Part shown: in pieces, positions 780 through 53,986 of the stretch
Position numbering within the stretch: position 1 is the first letter of the stretch
Layout of the letters: each line of letters starts with the position of its first letter
Notes under the pieces: model-generated
Told to the model about the DNA's origin: nothing
Database searches by the model: none
Seen by the model: the letters and a program-made list of their open reading frames with translations, nothing else
Assembly: GCF_017348835.2 (NCBI RefSeq)
Contig: NZ_CP071375.1
Strand: one strand, 5' to 3'
Length of the DNA stretch: 64,000 bases
Source: Escherichia coli
Lineage (GTDB): Bacteria > Pseudomonadota > Gammaproteobacteria > Enterobacterales > Enterobacteriaceae
Program-made: the position numbers and the translations under genes

Positions 780-1669
780 AAACACTGGTTGTGGCTCTTG
801 GGGGCAACGCCTTACTCCAGCGCGGTGAGGCGCTGACGGCAGAAAATCAATATCGCAATATCGCCAGTGCTGTACCCGCGCTGGCACGCCTGGCCCGTTC
901 TTATCGGTTGGCGATTGTTCACGGCAACGGGCCGCAGGTGGGGCTGCTGGCATTGCAGAATCTGGCGTGGAAAGAGGTAGAACCGTATCCGCTGGATGTG
1001 CTGGTGGCAGAAAGTCAGGGGATGATTGGCTATATGCTGGCGCAGAGTTTGAGCGCACAGCCGCAGATGCCGCCCGTGACGACGGTGCTGACGCGCATTG
1101 AGGTTTCGCCTGATGATCCGGCGTTTTTGCAGCCAGAGAAATTTATTGGTCCGGTTTATCAGCCAGAAGAACACGAGGCACTGGAAGCGGCTTACGGCTG
1201 GCAGATGAAACGTGATGGTAAATATTTACGCCGGGTGGTGGCGTCTCCGCAACCGCGTAAAATTCTCGACAGCGAAGCCATCGAGTTGTTGCTCAAAGAG
1301 GGGCATGTGGTGATTTGCAGTGGCGGCGGCGGTGTGCCTGTGACGGATGACGGAGCAGGGAGTGAAGCAGTGATTGATAAAGATCTCGCCGCTGCGTTGC
1401 TCGCCGAGCAGATTAATGCAGATGGACTGGTGATCATCACCGATGCTGATGCGGTATATGAAAACTGGGGAACGCCGCAGCAACGTGCCATTCGCCATGC
1501 CACACCGGATGAGTTAGCGCCATTTGCCAAAGCCGATGGTTCGATGGGGCCGAAGGTAACGGCGGTGAGTGGTTATGTCAGAAGCCGTGGTAAACCCGCG
1601 TGGATTGGGGCGTTATCGCGAATTGAAGAGACGCTGGCGGGCGAAGCGGGGACCTGTATTTCGCTGTAG
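776..1669 (+). CDS. ybcF: carbamate kinase-like protein
   Basis: 297-aa ORF; carbamate kinase family motifs ([26 protein letters not shown]); position upstream of purK. Confidence 0.85.
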
Positions 1670-4223: not shown

Positions 4224-4718
4224 TTACTCGCTAACGGTCACGCTTTCAATGATAACGTCTTCTTTTGGCACGTCCTGGTGCATACCGCTACGACCGGTTG
4301 CAACACCTTTGATTTTGTCTACCACGTCCATGCCTTCAACCACTTCAGCAAACACGCAGTAGCCCCAACCTTGCAGGCTTTCGCCAGAGAAGTTCAGGAA
4401 GTCGTTATCAACCACGTTGATGAAGAACTGTGCAGTTGCAGAGTGCGGAGCCTGAGTACGGGCCATTGCCAGCGTACCACGGGTATTTTTCAGGCCGTTG
4501 TTGGCTTCGTTTTTGATCGGTTCTTTGGTGGCTTTTTGTTTCATGCCCGGTTCAAAACCGCCGCCCTGAATCATAAAGCCGTTGATAACACGGTGGAAAA
4601 TGGTGTTGTTGTAAAAACCTTCGCGGCAGTAGTCCAGGAAGTTTTTAACTGTTTCAGGTGCTTTATCGTCAAAAGTTTTGATGACAATATCGCCGTGATT
4701 GGTGTGGAAAGTAACCAT
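4224..4718 (-). CDS. ppiB: peptidyl-prolyl cis-trans isomerase B (cyclophilin)
   Basis: 164-aa cyclophilin sequence ([27 protein letters not shown]...). Confidence 0.95.
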
Positions 4719-4891: not shown

Positions 4892-6277
4892 ATGCTAAAA
4901 ATCTTCAATACTCTGACACGCCAAAAAGAGGAATTTAAGCCTATTCACGCCGGGGAAGTCGGCATGTACGTGTGTGGAATCACCGTTTACGATCTCTGTC
5001 ATATCGGTCACGGGCGTACCTTTGTTGCTTTTGACGTGGTTGCGCGCTATCTGCGTTTCCTCGGCTATAAACTGAAGTATGTGCGCAACATTACCGATAT
5101 CGACGACAAAATCATCAAACGCGCCAATGAAAATGGCGAAAGCTTTGTGGCGCTGGTGGATCGCATGATCGCCGAAATGCACAAAGATTTTGATGCTTTG
5201 AACATTTTGCGCCCGGATATGGAGCCGCGCGCGACGCACCATATCGCAGAAATTATTGAACTCACTGAACAACTGATCGCCAAAGGTCACGCTTATGTGG
5301 CGGACAACGGCGACGTGATGTTCGACGTCCCGACCGATCCGACTTATGGCGTGCTGTCGCGCCAGGATCTCGACCAGCTGCAGGCAGGCGCGCGCGTTGA
5401 CGTGGTCGATGACAAACGCAACCCGATGGACTTCGTTCTGTGGAAGATGTCGAAAGAGGGCGAACCGAGCTGGCCGTCTCCGTGGGGCGCGGGCCGTCCT
5501 GGCTGGCACATTGAATGTTCGGCAATGAACTGCAAGCAGCTGGGTAACCACTTTGATATCCACGGCGGCGGTTCTGACCTGATGTTCCCACACCACGAAA
5601 ACGAAATCGCTCAGTCCACCTGTGCCCATGATGGTCAGTATGTGAACTACTGGATGCACTCCGGGATGGTGATGGTTGATCGCGAGAAGATGTCCAAATC
5701 GCTGGGTAACTTCTTCACCGTGCGTGATGTGCTGAAATACTACGACGCGGAAACCGTGCGTTACTTCCTGATGTCGGGACACTATCGCAGCCAGCTGAAC
5801 TACAGCGAAGAGAACCTGAAGCAGGCGCGTGCGGCGCTGGAGCGTCTCTACACTGCCCTGCGCGGCACAGACAAAACCGTTGCGCCTGCCGGTGGCGAAG
5901 CGTTTGAAGCGCGCTTTATTGAAGCGATGGACGACGATTTCAACACCCCGGAAGCCTATTCCGTACTGTTTGATATGGCGCGTGAAGTAAACCGTCTGAA
6001 AGCAGAAGATATGGCAGCGGCGAATGCAATGGCATCTCACCTGCGTAAACTTTCCGCTGTACTGGGCCTGCTGGAGCAAGAGCCGGAAGCGTTCCTGCAA
6101 AGCGGTGCGCAGGCAGACGACAGCGAAGTGGCTGAGATTGAAGCGTTAATTCAACAGCGTCTGGATGCCCGTAAAGCGAAAGACTGGGCGGCGGCAGATG
6201 CGGCGCGTGACCGTCTTAACGAGATGGGGATCGTGCTGGAAGATGGCCCGCAAGGGACCACCTGGCGTCGTAAGTAA
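4892..6277 (+). CDS. cysS: cysteine--tRNA ligase
   Basis: 461-aa class I aaRS with HIGH (CHIGHGR) and KMSKS motifs. Confidence 0.95.
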
Positions 6278-15010: not shown

Positions 15011-15087
15011 GCGCCCTTAGCTCAGTTGGATAGAGCAACGACCTTCTAAGTCGTGGGCCGCAGGTTCGAATCCTGCAGGGCGCGCCA
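15011..15087 (+). tRNA. argU: tRNA-Arg (anticodon UCU)
   Basis: 77-nt sequence gcgcccttagctcagttggatagagcaacgaccttctaagtcgtgggccgcaggttcgaatcctgcagggcgcgcca with TCT anticodon and GTTCGAATC T-loop. Confidence 0.95.
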
Positions 15088-18703: not shown

Positions 18704-19066
18704 TTAACGACCTGCTGCGCGGAGTTTTCCGTCAGGTTCACCGGCAAGAGTCAGTAATTGTCCCTGGTCTTCCTGCAGAATAGTCAGGCGACCACCGCGA
18801 TTGACATACATCGGCGTTTCGGTGGTGTCTTCTTCGGAAATTTTCCCGCGGTTAGTCGGGCGAATATATGAGAGTTTGTGTTTGATTTTCACACGGTTCT
18901 CATCAAATGGTTCGATTTCCAGGTTGAGTGAGACCTTACCTTTGGTTTTCGTGTTCATCACACCGGAAGCGACTTCACTGAGAACTGCGCCGATTTTGGT
19001 TTCAAATACGCCGCCGTCCAGCTCCCCGATAAATGCCTGCACATCAGTACTGCGTTCGCTAGCCAT
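18704..19066 (-). CDS. prophage protein, YfdP-like
   Basis: 120-aa product from ATG 19064-19066 (MASERSTDVQAFIGELDGG...); first gene of the leftward operon. Confidence 0.55.
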   Translation of the reverse strand: MASERSTDVQAFIGELDGGVFETKIGAVLSEVASGVMNTKTKGKVSLNLEIEPFDENRVKIKHKLSYIRPTNRGKISEEDTTETPMYVNRGGRLTILQEDQGQLLTLAGEPDGKLRAAGR

Positions 19067-19114
19067 TTTGCTGCTCCTCATCATATCGACCCTGCAAGGC
19101 CGATTAGTTTCTCC

Positions 19115-19247
19115 ACAAAACAGAGAAGAACACCTGTGGTGGCCGCCGCCCGGATGGATTGGGTTATGAGCCCGTCGTCCGGTGATGCTCTTCTCTGTTT
19201 TGTAAAAAGGACGGTACCAGCCGGAAGCAAGGGTACAAGCTGGTACC
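19115..19247. promoter_or_regulatory. structured leader: 15-bp perfect inverted repeat plus leftward hairpin/U-tract
   Basis: acaaaacagagaaga (19115-19129) and its exact reverse complement (19189-19203) with 59-nt spacer; stem ggtaccagc/gctggtacc (19213-19247) followed on the minus strand by TTTTT (19204-19208). Confidence 0.4.
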
Positions 19248-19468
19248 GCCAGGACTACACACAGCATAAAGTTGTGGTGCCGGGTGCCCTCCCGGTGCCT
19301 GGCGAAGGTTGCACACCAGGCGGGTGGGTATCCACAGAAGGTCGACTGTCAGCCTCAACCTTAACCCGCGTGCGCTGAGCCGCATTCACCACAACGCTAA
19401 GGATTCTCTCTGGTTGAAAATACTTAGCTGTTATGTGCCTGCTTTTAGCCACATCAGGCGAGGTGGAC

Positions 19469-19522
19469 CTGGTTATTCCCCAACAACAAGGATTCGGTTA
19501 ATCTGGATATCCCCAACAACAA
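19469..19522 (+). repeat. two tandem ~20-nt direct repeats just upstream of the 19537 ORF
   Basis: ctggttattccccaacaacaa (19469-19489) and ctggatatccccaacaacaa (19503-19522), period about 33 nt. Confidence 0.6.
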
Positions 19523-19536
19523 TAAGAGTATTCAAT

Positions 19537-20052
19537 GTGATCGCTGAATTAACGGCAGCAATGACGGCTATTCGTGAAACAGCCCAGATTGCAAAACTAA
19601 TGAACGAGGCAAAAACTCAAGCTGAAGTAAATGCGGCTATTGGTGAGCTGAACTCAAAGCTTGCGTCTATTCAGCGCGAATGCGTGTCTCTCGTTGAACT
19701 GGTGGGCTCTTATCAAGAAATAAATGCTTCTCTCAAAGCTAAAATTGCAGAATTCGAAAACTTTGAGGCTCAGACGGAAGGCTATATCCTTAACCAACTT
19801 GAGTCGGGTACTTTTGTATACTCGAAGGAGGTAATCGTGAACGGTGGCAGCATAACCATGCATCTTTGCCCAAAATGTTTTGGACAAAAGATAGTATCGA
19901 TACTTCAACCATTCCCGGTTAGCGAAGATGAGCTTTTTCATAAAAGCAGGTGCCTCCACTGTGAAAATAAGTTTCTGATGAATAAAAATCCGGATTACGT
20001 ATCGCCTCCATCCATTGAGGAGTTGTCCAGAAAACTTAACGGCAATCTGTAG
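19537..20052 (+). CDS. hypothetical protein: N-terminal coiled-coil, C-terminal CxxC...CxxC zinc ribbon
   Basis: ORF frame open from 19309; plausible starts GTG 19537 or ATG 19561; heptad-like N-terminus (IAKLMNEAKTQAEVNAAIGELNSKLASIQREC), C-terminal HLCPKCFGQK...SRCLHCENKF; own hairpin terminator downstream. Confidence 0.6.
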   Translation: MIAELTAAMTAIRETAQIAKLMNEAKTQAEVNAAIGELNSKLASIQRECVSLVELVGSYQEINASLKAKIAEFENFEAQTEGYILNQLESGTFVYSKEVIVNGGSITMHLCPKCFGQKIVSILQPFPVSEDELFHKSRCLHCENKFLMNKNPDYVSPPSIEELSRKLNGNL

Positions 20053-20090
20053 ATTACTACTGTTGTGGATATCCAGATTGTTAAAGAGCT

Positions 20091-20114
20091 AAGCGTCCTG
20101 TAGGGCGCTTTTTT
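20091..20114 (+). terminator. rho-independent terminator of the 19537-20052 gene
   Basis: Stem aagcgtcc/gggcgctt with tgta loop, then T6. Confidence 0.6.
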
Positions 20115-20280
20115 GTTGCTAACGAATCATCCTGGACTTCATATGCCCCAGGCGGCTACTTCGTGGGCGTCCTGCCTGTTCGTTTTTGACATTTACTGAC
20201 TGCTTACGACACATGCACCGTGTTGCAACCAGATTTTGTTGTAATCCTGTAGTTGGTCTGGAACAAAAGATAAAATTAAA

Positions 20281-20317
20281 TTGCGAGATATGCAAGCGAT
20301 ATTTGCGAGGTATGCAA
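20281..20317. promoter_or_regulatory. OL-like operator pair with candidate leftward promoter
   Basis: 15-mers TTGCGAGATATGCAA (20281-20295) and TTGCGAGGTATGCAA (20303-20317) share TTGC-N7-GCAA with sites in the cI-cro intergenic region; minus strand carries TTGCAT / 17 nt / TATCTT. Confidence 0.5.
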
Positions 20318-20330
20318 ATTTATAGGTAGT

Positions 20331-20351
20331 AAAAAGCCACCTTTCGGTGGC
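20331..20351 (-). terminator. rho-independent terminator after the cI-like gene
   Basis: Hairpin gccacc-tttc-ggtggc (20336-20351) followed on the minus strand by TTTTT (20331-20335). Confidence 0.6.
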
Positions 20352-20371
20352 CGATGGATGGGATATTGAGG

Positions 20372-21064
20372 TTAATTATGTCTCTTAAGGGTTTGCGACT
20401 GACTGATTAAGACCTTTCCAAAGACCATGAATCGGTGTTCGTTTTCGCTAGTAATTCCCCATTCACGGTAAATCTGGTTATCAGAAATCACCAGCAGTTT
20501 GTCAGGAATCATTTGAAGTCTTTTAACGTATATTTTGTCATCAAAACCAAAGACATATATACCATCACCATCAAACTGATTGATGCTGACATCAACGAAG
20601 ATGAGATCTCCTGGCTCAATGGTTGGACACATACTGTCCCCACGAACGTTGATAACTTTGATGTGATTGGCTGGTCGTCCGCCGAACATTGATACAGCAT
20701 TATCAGTTCTGTATTCGATGGCATGAATCACATCAATGACATCACCGCCCTGGATAAGGCCATTTCCCGCACTGGCACTGATATCCAGCATTTCAATACG
20801 GAACACATCCTTCACCTGCGCAACATCCTCATTATTACTGTTTTTATATACAGTATTACTTTTGTGGGCAGAGGTAAAGAGATCAGCAATATCAACACCT
20901 AAGCTCTTGGCAATATTACTCAGTGTTTGTTCGGTAAATTGTTTTTGCTTACCCGTTTCTAAGCGCGAGATGTTCGCCGCATCTACTCCTATTGCTTCAG
21001 CGAGATCGGCGATTTTCATGTTCTTCGCTTGGCGAAGTTGTCTGACTCGGTTTCCTATGTTCAT
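20372..21064 (-). CDS. cI: CI-like phage repressor (HTH_XRE plus S24 LexA-like peptidase domain)
   Basis: 230-aa; N-terminal HTH (RVRQLRQAKNMKIADLAEAIGVDAANISRLETGK), C-terminal GDSM serine and VKR lysine; divergent from a cro-like gene. Confidence 0.85.
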   Translation of the reverse strand: MNIGNRVRQLRQAKNMKIADLAEAIGVDAANISRLETGKQKQFTEQTLSNIAKSLGVDIADLFTSAHKSNTVYKNSNNEDVAQVKDVFRIEMLDISASAGNGLIQGGDVIDVIHAIEYRTDNAVSMFGGRPANHIKVINVRGDSMCPTIEPGDLIFVDVSINQFDGDGIYVFGFDDKIYVKRLQMIPDKLLVISDNQIYREWGITSENEHRFMVFGKVLISQSQTLKRHN

Positions 21065-21161
21065 GCGTTTATTACATTTCTTTATTGCGTGATAAGCAAA
21101 TCAACTTGCGCAAAATAATTGCGTGAAATAACATGCATAACGCGCAATATTTGGAGGGCAT
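21065..21161. promoter_or_regulatory. OR-like operator/promoter region between cI and cro
   Basis: Repeated TTGCG/CGCAA half-sites; 15-mers TTGCGTGATAAGCAA (21085-21099) and ATGCATAACGCGCAA (21133-21147); RBS ggaggg before cro. Confidence 0.55.
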
Positions 21162-21422
21162 ATGCAATCACCATTACGAAATGTGCGTAAGGCGCATGGT
21201 TTCACTTTGCAGCATGTTGCTGCGGGTGTTCAAGTCAATCCAGCGACGTTGAGTCGTATTGAGAGGCTGGAGCAGATTCCATCTATCGAGCTTGCAGAAC
21301 GTTTAGCCAATTTTTTTAAGGGTGAAGTCAGCGAAATGCAGATTCTTTATCCGGCACGTTTTCAATCTAGCCAAAACCAGAATGGGTTTAAACCACAGGA
21401 ACAGGAGGTGAACCGTGGGTAA
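21162..21422 (+). CDS. cro: Cro-like HTH regulator
   Basis: 86-aa HTH_XRE protein (FTLQHVAAGVQVNPATLSRIER) divergent from cI. Confidence 0.75.
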   Translation: MQSPLRNVRKAHGFTLQHVAAGVQVNPATLSRIERLEQIPSIELAERLANFFKGEVSEMQILYPARFQSSQNQNGFKPQEQEVNRG

Positions 21423-21966
21423 GCATCACTGGAAAGTAGAAAAACAGCCTGAGTGTTACGTGAAAGCTGTCAGAAAAACTATCGCAGCGTTGCCGGGGGG
21501 GTACGCTGAAGCTGCTGACTGGCTGGATGTAACAGAGAACGCATTATTTAACCGCCTTCGTGCCGATGGCGATCAGATTTTCCCGCTGGGATGGGCAATG
21601 ATTTTGCAACGTGCTGGTGGAACTCACTTCATTGCTGACGCTGTGGCGCAGTCTGCAAATGGCGTCTTTGTGTCTCTTCCTGATGTCGAGGATGTGGACA
21701 ACGCCGATATCAACCAACGCCTGCTGGAAGTCATTGAACAGATCGGCAGTTATTCAAAACAGATTCGTTCAGCAATTGAAGACGGTGTAGTGGAACCGCA
21801 TGAGAAGACAGCAATTAACGATGAGCTGTACCTCTCAATTTCGAAGCTGCAGGAGCATGCAGCACTGGTCTACAAAATCTTTTGCGTTTCAGAAAGTAGT
21901 GACGCCCGCGAGTGTGCAGCTCCGGGCGCCGTGGCGTGTCGTGACTGTGGAGAAACTAACGCATGA
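21415..21966 (+). CDS. phage regulatory protein, possibly CII (CP76)-like
   Basis: 183-aa ORF directly after cro with overlapping start; family assignment from position and recalled similarity only. Confidence 0.4.
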
Positions 21967-24474: not shown

Positions 24475-25284
24475 ATGAATAATCTGATGGTCATTGATGG
24501 TATTGAAGTTCGTCGTGATGCTTATGGGCGTTACAGCCTGAACGATCTGCATCGCGCAGCAGTAGCATCTGGTGCAAATGCCAGAACCAAGGAGCCAGGA
24601 AAGTTTCTTTCCAGCCAACAAACTGTTGAGCTTGTTCATGAATTAACCAACACCCAGAATTTGGGTGTTGACCCGGTGAGTGTGATTCATGGGGGAAATG
24701 AACGGGGAACGTATGTCTGTAAGGAACTGGTGTATGCCTATGCAATGTGGATCAGCCCGTCATTCCATCTGAAGGTGATCCGTACTTTCGATATGGTAAC
24801 CAGCGCGCCGGAAAAGTTATCCGGACAGGTTGCTGACAAGATGCAGGCTGGCGTGATTCTGCTGGACTTTATGCGCCGGGAGTTAAATCTGTCTAACTCA
24901 TCTGTGCTTGGGGCCTGTCAGAAACTCCAGGAGGCTGTTGGCTTACCGAATCTGGCACCGCGCTATGCCATTGATGCACCTGCTGACGCGCCTGATGGCT
25001 CAAGCCGCCCGACGCTGTCGCTGAGTGCACTGCTGAAGCAGTATGGTATCCGCCTGACGGCTAATCAGGCATATCACCAGATGGCGAAGCTGGGGATCGT
25101 TGAACAACGCGAACGATACAGCCGTACCGCGATTAACAACATCAAAAAATTCTGGTCGCTGACAGCGAAAGGTTGCATGTTCGGCAAGAACATCACCAGT
25201 CCCGCAAATCCGCGCGAGACGCAGCCGCATTTCTTCGAATCCCGATTCCCTGAGCTGTTAAAGCTGCTCGATACCGTTCATTGA
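24475..25284 (+). CDS. KilA-N domain protein (antirepressor-like)
   Basis: 269-aa from ATG 24475 with RBS aggag; N-terminal KilA-N/APSES-like domain. Confidence 0.65.
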   Translation: MNNLMVIDGIEVRRDAYGRYSLNDLHRAAVASGANARTKEPGKFLSSQQTVELVHELTNTQNLGVDPVSVIHGGNERGTYVCKELVYAYAMWISPSFHLKVIRTFDMVTSAPEKLSGQVADKMQAGVILLDFMRRELNLSNSSVLGACQKLQEAVGLPNLAPRYAIDAPADAPDGSSRPTLSLSALLKQYGIRLTANQAYHQMAKLGIVEQRERYSRTAINNIKKFWSLTAKGCMFGKNITSPANPRETQPHFFESRFPELLKLLDTVH

Positions 25285-53402: not shown

Positions 53403-53986
53403 TGGCATTCAGAATGAGTGAACAAGCACGGACCATAAAAATTTATAATCTGCTGGCCGGAACTAATGAATTTATTGGTGAAGGTGATGCATATATTCCG
53501 CCTCATACAGGTCTGCCAGCAAACAGTACCGATATTGCACCACCAGATATTCCTGCTGGCTTTGTGGCTGTTTTCAACAGTGATGAGGCATCGTGGCATC
53601 TCGTTGAAGACCATCTGGGTAAAACGGTTTATGACGTAGCGTCAGGGGACGAGTTATTTATTTCTGAACTCGGTCCGTTACCGGAAAATGTTACCTGGTT
53701 ATCGCCGGAAGGGGAGTTTCAGAAGTGGAACGGCACAGCCTGGGTGAAAGATGCAGAAGCAGAAAAACTGTTCCGGATCCGAGAGGCGGAAGAAATAAAA
53801 AACAGCCTGATGCAGGTAGCCAGTGAGCATATTGCGCCACTTCAGGATGCTGTAGATCTGGAAATCGCAACGGAGGAAGAAACCTCATTGTTGGAAGCCT
53901 GGAAAAAGTATCGGGTGTTGCTGAACCGTGTTGATACATCAACTGCACCTGATATTGAGTGGCCTACGAATCCTGTCAGGGAGTAA
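53402..53986 (+). CDS. tfa: tail fibre assembly protein (Tfa)
   Basis: 194-aa, start overlaps the stf stop. Confidence 0.85.

Follow-up and report, generated by a model that had tools for sequence, protein, structure and literature searches.

A probable lambdoid CI/Cro immunity region in an Escherichia coli prophage: candidate operators, promoters and an inverted cargo gene in the predicted pL leader

Introduction

Phage lambda is the closest well-described counterpart of the locus considered here, a CI-type repressor gene and its flanks in a 64,000-nucleotide stretch of Escherichia coli DNA (assembly GCF_017348835.2, contig NZ_CP071375.1; hereafter ‘the window’, in whose coordinates all positions are given). 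In lambda, CI combines a helix-turn-helix (HTH) domain with a domain whose autocleavage is stimulated by RecA, and cro is divergent from cI. The same dyad operator occurs on both sides of cI, overlapping the promoters pL, pR and pRM; adjacent sites are 22–24 bp apart, and the cI mRNA made from pRM is leaderless. Each of these features has an apparent counterpart in the window, the leaderless message probably so. The differences are several: the operator is a dyad of 15 bp (TTGCG-N5-YGCAA) rather than 17 bp, the left operator (OL) comprises two sites where lambda has three, the interval from cI to OL holds no rex genes, N and nutR are absent, and the leader of the predicted pL transcript holds an inverted cargo gene.

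Two OL operators only are also reported for the Stx phage 933W, the repressor and operators of which are unrelated in sequence and which uses N. In coliphage 186, pR and pL are convergent, 62 bp apart, and form the switch itself. Much nearer in sequence are phages of the same immunity type (SfII, mEp460, Stx2a_1447/WGPS2), whose records annotate cI, cro and a terminator, with no operators or pL, and in which the cargo between pL and yfdP differs from that in the window. Nearer in layout are the heteroimmune phages SfV, SfIV and PhiR29_1, which share gene order and flanks with the window and have OL and pL just after the cI terminator, but which possess another repressor, GTAC-type operators and a consensus pL; in SfV a ‘putative operator region’ is annotated between cI and cro. 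According to PMC3851460, N is missing from SfII, SfV and SfIV.

The region belongs to a lambdoid prophage of the SfV/e14/CPS-53 type, adjoining a tRNA gene. A sequence-only reading of the window had proposed that a repressor-controlled, pL-like promoter transcribes leftward through the antisense strand of an open reading frame (ORF) at 19537–20052, and that it does so as a lysogeny/lytic switch acting on that ORF. We consider it very probable, from sequence comparison, that this is a lambdoid CI/Cro immunity region with the classical OL/pL–OR/pR/pRM layout. The predicted pL arrangement is the canonical lambdoid OL/pL that would drive the early-left operon, and not a device aimed at the ORF.

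Results

One dyad on both sides of the repressor gene

The features on which the argument turns are as follows, the operator names being those of the lambda sites that they would correspond to.

20372..21064, minus strand: CI-type repressor, 230 amino acids, with XRE helix-turn-helix and Peptidase_S24 domains; annotated cI in SfII.
21162..21422, plus strand: cro-like HTH gene, 86 amino acids, matching HTH repressor PHROGs; annotated cro in SfII.
20335..20352, minus strand: intrinsic terminator for cI, reading GGCCACC-GAAA-GGTGGCT and then TTTTT (-13.2 kcal/mol); annotated as a terminator in SfII.
20281..20295: candidate OL1, TTGCGAGATATGCAA, a 15-bp dyad spanning the predicted pL -35 hexamer and 9 nt of the pL spacer.
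20303..20317: candidate OL2, TTGCGAGGTATGCAA, a 15-bp dyad on the upstream side of the pL -35, with 22 bp between its centre and that of OL1.
21085..21099: OR3-like operator, TTGCGTGATAAGCAA, over the predicted pRM -35 with the geometry of OL1 over the pL -35.
21133..21147: OR1-like operator, ATGCATAACGCGCAA (reverse complement TTGCGCGTTATGCAT), overlapping the predicted pR -10.
21106..21123: central cluster of half-sites, comprising the palindrome TTGCGCAA (21106–21113) and TTGCG (21119–21123), and holding the predicted pR -35.

The repressor matches Pfam HTH_3/HTH_26 (E 1e-11 to 1e-12) and Peptidase_S24 (E 1e-18), and carries both the Ala99-Gly100 site and the Ser144/Lys181 dyad of an S24 autopeptidase. 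A search of solved structures found no closely similar repressor whose operator is known, and ClgR, UmuD and dh434 ranked highest, at E ~1e-4. BLASTP gave no alignment between the N-terminal domain of CI and Cro. The cro-like gene is divergent from cI, with 97 bp between them, and the cI terminator sits between cI and OL.

All four 15-mers singled out in the sequence-only reading, two beyond the 3′ end of cI and two in the cI–cro spacer, were found at the coordinates that it gave, as were the extra half-sites it reported in the spacer (TTGCG or CGCAA at 21106, 21109 and 21119). Its view that this shared motif represents repressor operators agrees with motif statistics and, as described below, with conservation. 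A scan of the 64-kb window for TTGC-N7-GCAA gave seven sites against 2.96 expected, a count reached in 0/100 shuffles, and 3/7 were within the two intergenic regions flanking the repressor gene; since these regions total approximately 416 bp, about 0.02 sites would be expected there (Poisson estimate, P ~1e-6). A position weight matrix (PWM) made from the left pair alone ranked 21085–21099 highest of all sites outside OL in the window, and one made from the right pair alone ranked 20281–20295 highest of all sites outside OR. The next-ranked match, at 25173 within a long ORF, is probably due to chance, no other site in the window coming near operator scores. The 97-bp spacer (21065–21161) alone holds five TTGCG/CGCAA pentamers, compared with 0.21 expected (P = 3e-6). 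From these sites we infer that the operator of this immunity type is a 15-bp dyad, TTGCG-N5-YGCAA, bound by repressor dimers.

Predicted operators follow the repressor in related phages

Positions 20121–21600 share 99.4% identity with Shigella phage SfII (KC736978), in which the genes are annotated cI, cro and cII, and approximately 91% with mEp460 and the Stx2a-converting phages Stx2a_1447/WGPS2. All four sites in mEp460 and Stx2a_1447 retain the half-sites TTGCG and TGCAA/CGCAA, while the central 5 bp vary. Scanning viral contigs for an OL-type pair of dyads, with a search pattern of which the OR-side sites were no part, yielded at least 120 loci. Among the loci listed, 98/120 had a full-length cI of ≥90% identity, ending about 95 nt from the pair. 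The pair was spaced at 22, 23 or 24 bp in these 98 loci; an OR3-like site (+800..812 from OL) was present in 96/98 and an OR1-like site (ATGC-N6-CGCAA) in 95/97, and AAGATA, the predicted pL -10 read on the opposite strand, stood exactly 8 nt left of OL in 97/98.

Four loci with cI of only 70–73% identity retain a pair of dyads beyond the cI terminator and, in the cI–cro spacer, a further pair together with TTGCGCAA; ATTACA beside the cI start is kept in all four despite diverged surroundings. AAGATA is kept in L058 and L076 and absent in L042, while the sequence of L078 ends there. The palindrome TTGCGCAA is invariant in all relatives, and is a plausible candidate for a weak OR2 at the pR -35; TTGCG at 21119 is found in close relatives only. 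In Pseudomonas prophages, where the repressor shares the HTH alone (38–40% identity), three dyads at 23-bp spacing lie on the OL side and two on the other.

Where the repressor is exchanged, so is the motif. SfV and PhiR29_1 share both flanks with the window and differ in cI (PhiR29_1 also has the ORF at 19537–20052), and they carry GTAC-type repeats (GGTACA-type palindromes) at both the OL and the OR positions, with a consensus leftward promoter, TTGACA-16-CATAAT, at the left one. Operator sequence thus varies with repressor type while operator positions are fixed, which is the signature of OL and OR. This also bears on whether the motifs might be chance repeats, or sites bound by some host regulator that has nothing to do with the prophage repressor. 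Shortness of the motif is all that speaks for such an origin; the motif statistics oppose chance, the motif is strictly tied to this repressor type in the 98 listed loci, and a different motif takes its place where the repressor differs, so that we find the idea scarcely credible.

The Rac-like prophage of EDL933 (L006) provides what appears to be a further OL/OR pair: AGGC/GCCTAAT-type repeats lie on both sides of racR (4560–4640 and 5190–5290 of that locus), with a leftward TTGACA-17-TATAGT, and the same ORF cassette follows downstream in the same inverted orientation.

Partial matches to the queried region occurred in 3133/5426 complete E. coli genomes, with at least 80% of it covered in 99. 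The sequence of the immunity region is already public, as SfII; the operator strings of this immunity type were not found in the searchable literature, where its operators seem to be undescribed. The comparison supplies a testable operator consensus, TTGCG-N5-YGCAA, and a promoter map for an immunity group found very commonly among prophages of E. coli and Shigella; SfII, mEp460 and several Stx2a/Stx2c phages belong to it. These should be of use in annotation and in predicting superinfection immunity and induction, and leave the understanding of such switches unchanged.

Predicted promoters and their regulation

Three promoters are predicted in association with the dyads.

20267..20295, minus strand: predicted pL; -35 TTGCAT (20295..20290), 17-nt spacer, -10 TATCTT (20272..20267), start near 20260.
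21071..21099, minus strand: predicted pRM; -35 TTGCTT (21099..21094), 17-nt spacer, -10 TGTAAT (21076..21071).
21106..21134, plus strand: predicted pR; -35 TTGCGC (21106–21111), -10 TAACAT (21129–21134).

The minus-strand TTGCAT-17-TATCTT element said to overlap the left pair has the coordinates described, and both its geometry and its conservation favour a pL-like promoter. The operator half-site TTGC forms the first bases of the -35 hexamer in all three promoters, and pL and pRM, which place the operator over the -35 in the same way, are identical at 22/41 positions. The pR -10 reads TAATAT in mEp460 and Stx2a. No Shine-Dalgarno sequence precedes cI, and only 6 nt separate the pRM -10 from the cI ATG, for which reason the cI mRNA is probably leaderless.

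Several observations weigh against this layout. The principal weakness is that pL, pRM and pR are all weak matches, with 3/6 in their -35 hexamers, and a consensus promoter scan of 18900–21500 called no promoter; the promoters were therefore assigned by geometry and conservation. The operator directly over the pRM -35 is among the strongest-scoring, where lambda has its weakest site. OR2 is ill-defined, as a single good half-site is conserved. Finally, the pL transcript would meet a conserved intrinsic terminator (see below) while an N-like antiterminator is absent.

The weak, uncalled match at pL leaves room for another arrangement, in which the left pair would be auxiliary operators without a promoter, serving either for looping to OR or as a roadblock to read-through from cI, and the early-left genes would use another promoter. 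Scan and inspection found no alternative promoter between 20260 and yfdP, however, and read-through is already blocked by the cI terminator. Moreover, the pL -10 keeps its 8-nt distance from OL in 97/98 of the listed loci, and in L058 and L076 does so despite diverged flanks, and in heteroimmune relatives this position is taken by a consensus promoter. We therefore judge auxiliary operators to be very unlikely and retain OL/pL as the reading of the left pair.

In a lysogen, repressor dimers would bind the 15-bp dyads, the two adjacent dyads beyond the cI terminator acting as OL, where the 22-bp offset between OL1 and OL2 would suit pairwise cooperative binding. The cI–cro spacer would offer a strong dyad on the pRM -35, a second on the -10/+1 of pR, and a weak third, TTGCGCAA, at the pR -35. 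Repressor so placed would close pL and pR and limit its own synthesis; after RecA activation it would presumably be cleaved at Ala99-Gly100.

The predicted leftward transcript

On induction, pL would fire and its transcript would run through a leader of approximately 170 nt, a boxA-like element, the antisense of the ORF, and a structured RNA ending in the terminator at 19247..19204, before reaching yfdP-yfdQ-yfdR and onwards to xis/int. The parts of this path other than the cargo are:

20121..20187, minus strand: conserved block of the pL leader, common to SfII and the heteroimmune SfV and PhiR29_1, with a diverged form in L042.
19201..19425, minus strand: conserved multi-stem RNA domain ending in the terminator 19204–19247, nearly invariant across E. 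coli and Salmonella phages.
18704..19066, minus strand: yfdP, first gene of the early-left operon.

The passage of this transcript antisense through 19537–20052 to the terminator, as the earlier reading had envisaged, is supported in that no minus-strand terminator is predicted between. The genes yfdR, yfdQ and yfdP all lie left of the immunity region on the minus strand, and yfdP is presumed to be the real target of pL.

The hairpin and U-tract that had been noticed at 19204–19247 are real, the stem having 13 bp (-27 kcal/mol) with UUUUU directly after it. When phages of E. coli and Salmonella are aligned, five of the stem pairs prove to have changed on both sides with pairing kept, and CCUUUUUAC is invariant. 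The leader block folds no better than shuffled sequence on either strand (20115–20195). Inspection of the L042 form by eye showed two compensatory changes in a CCUGG/CCAGG stem.

One-base indels in the RNA domain at 19201–19425 show that it is non-coding; it is annotated as ymfH or as a ‘frameshifted hypothetical protein’. It was considered as a member of STnc100 (Rfam RF02076), to the full model of which it scores 36.5 bits (E = 5e-6) against a gathering threshold of 47. According to a preprint on Pas/STnc100, that family occurs in the neighbourhood of Q and TerB genes rather than in early-left leaders, and membership was rejected on account of both the sub-threshold score and this different genomic setting; the domain is at best a relative. 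A 32-nt part of its core (19365–19396) shares 94% identity with an intergenic region of phage P1 (L239, 70077–70108), which has upl on one side and the TerB-like tciA on the other, with tRNA genes and a ‘dicF-like region’ close by. Directly after the terminator lies a second, very stable minus-strand hairpin of approximately 25 bp (19105–19203, z = -7.2), and the terminator U-tract is part of its 5′ arm. One of its pairs covaries between E. coli and Salmonella, and the yfdP ribosome-binding site follows closely downstream.

No N-like gene was detected: neither lambda N nor the L150 N-like protein found a match by tblastn, and the early-left region contains no suitable small arginine-rich ORF. 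It is possible that, in these N-less phages, the RNA domain is a cis-acting antiterminator or a processed small RNA (sRNA). A scan of the pL transcript for rut-like (C-rich, G-poor) sequence was uninformative. A described small RNA of E. coli RS218, sRNA-17, encoded by an mEp460-like prophage (PMC7719688), was considered as a possible pL transcript; two pL-leader strings and an OL operator, in both orientations, were absent from the supplements of that paper, and the identification was dropped.

The inverted ORF and its cassette

The ORF antisense to the predicted pL transcript lies within a cassette.

19500..20079: cargo cassette bounded by inverted repeats at 19500–19525 and 20054–20079 (AATCTGGATATCC ... 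/ ... GGATATCCAGATT), holding the plus-strand ORF 19537–20052 (phrog_1244).
20073..20089, minus strand: boxA-like 17-mer GCTCTTTAACAATCTGG, on the strand transcribed from pL, approximately 185 nt past the predicted start.
20091..20110, plus strand: ORF terminator, -11.5 kcal/mol with a U-tract; weak on the minus strand, at -7.5 kcal/mol and with no U-tract.

Compared with copies of 94% identity, 19/28 substitutions in the ORF fall at third codon positions, a bias that marks it as real coding sequence. The same count rules out an antisense ORF of 101 amino acids (19654–19959) as a gene, those being third positions of the plus frame. PADLOC and Pfam gave no match for the ORF product, and neither consensus scan nor inspection found a promoter for it in 19400–19536.

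Homologues of phrog_1244 (32–100% identity) were found at 27 loci. In all informative loci a repressor-sized gene flanks it on one side and the early-left genes on the other, both on the strand opposite to its own, and its neighbours include at least eight repressor size classes, among them RacR in EDL933. The 26-nt inverted repeats are 85% complementary, and their cores, AATCTGGATATCC and GGATATCCAGATT, would form a perfect 18-bp palindrome were the cargo absent. Each copy of phrog_1244 has AATCTGGATATCC upstream and GGATATCCAGATT downstream, then GTTAAAGAGC and a terminator; at its downstream end each copy also has the boxA-like 17-mer on the pL strand. In L028 these arms enclose other cargo, and elsewhere they enclose homologues down to 32% identity. 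The slot between pL and the RNA domain is itself variable, and may contain no cargo (600–680 nt), other small plus-strand ORFs or, in SfV, a minus-strand ORF. As relatives have other cargo in the same slot, ORF 19537–20052 is exchangeable cargo (a moron) in the predicted pL leader.

Might pL nonetheless serve here mainly to silence the ORF on induction, by convergent transcription or antisense RNA, as a lysogeny/lytic switch? The phrog_1244 family is antisense to the early-left transcript throughout, beside those many repressor classes, and no reverse terminator shields the ORF from pL. For comparison, a gene of the lysogenic state faces a lytic promoter both in coliphage 186 and in lambda bor, an oppositely oriented moron; compared with 186, the overlap in the window would be at least 500 nt, with a predicted pL and with no ORF promoter found in the interval searched. 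On the other hand, pL, OL and the downstream operon are present in relatives without the ORF, including those with cargo-free slots, and the slot also houses other cargo. The lack of a detected ORF promoter counts against silencing too, and boxA on the pL strand suggests a design for the passage of pL transcription rather than for collision. Silencing as the main role of pL is therefore unlikely, and a canonical OL/pL serving the early-left operon remains the preferred reading.

The boxA-like element matches rrn boxA at 12/13 positions, and the early leader of T7 contains a 17-mer identical to GCTCTTTAACAATCTGG (PMC11863960). Both the 17-mer and GCTCTTTAACAA, at 20089..20078, are unique in the window. 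Among viral contigs the 17-mer is widespread, its flanks are very diverse, and in several cases it lies approximately 50–80 nt downstream of a consensus promoter; what follows it is an Ocr-like gene in T7-like contigs, and a boxB-like hairpin and N-like gene in L150. The element in the window differs from N-type nutL sites in having neither N nor an obvious boxB. It was considered as a universal trait of the phage group and is instead confined to slots with the inverted-repeat cassette, 18/120 among the listed OL-dyad loci.

This organisation suggests a cassette built to let leftward transcription through, and one that may make the ORF lysogen-specific. We tentatively entertain, as a possibility still short of an even chance, that the ORF is part of a portable cargo cassette tolerant of read-through, always inverted in the early-left leader of many heteroimmune prophages. 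Its order would be a AATCTGGATATCC arm, a plus-strand gene (phrog_1244 or another), a GGATATCCAGATT arm, boxA on the other strand and a terminator that works in one direction. BoxA would load host Nus factors onto the pL transcript, and approximately 1 kb of untranslated antisense would then be transcribed without Rho-dependent polarity affecting yfdP...xis/int. Across the cargo the inverted arms would pair, which could form a processing or insulating stem, and the cassette gene would be expressed only while pL is repressed. There is more potential in this inverted boxA cassette, in the pL leader of N-less lambdoid phages, than in the operator layout, for it bears both on the avoidance of polarity and on how a conserved terminator is passed without N.

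Neighbouring features

Beyond the cro-like gene lies one further regulatory gene:

21415..21966, plus strand: YmfL/CII-like regulator (NF041471, 168 bits).

Further afield, a tRNA gene at 15011–15084 stands beside a prophage integrase pseudogene and is a likely attachment site. Rfam matches elsewhere in the window (53745–53943 and 59007–59123) correspond to IS009 and to the ALIL pseudoknot, an insertion-sequence frameshift element.

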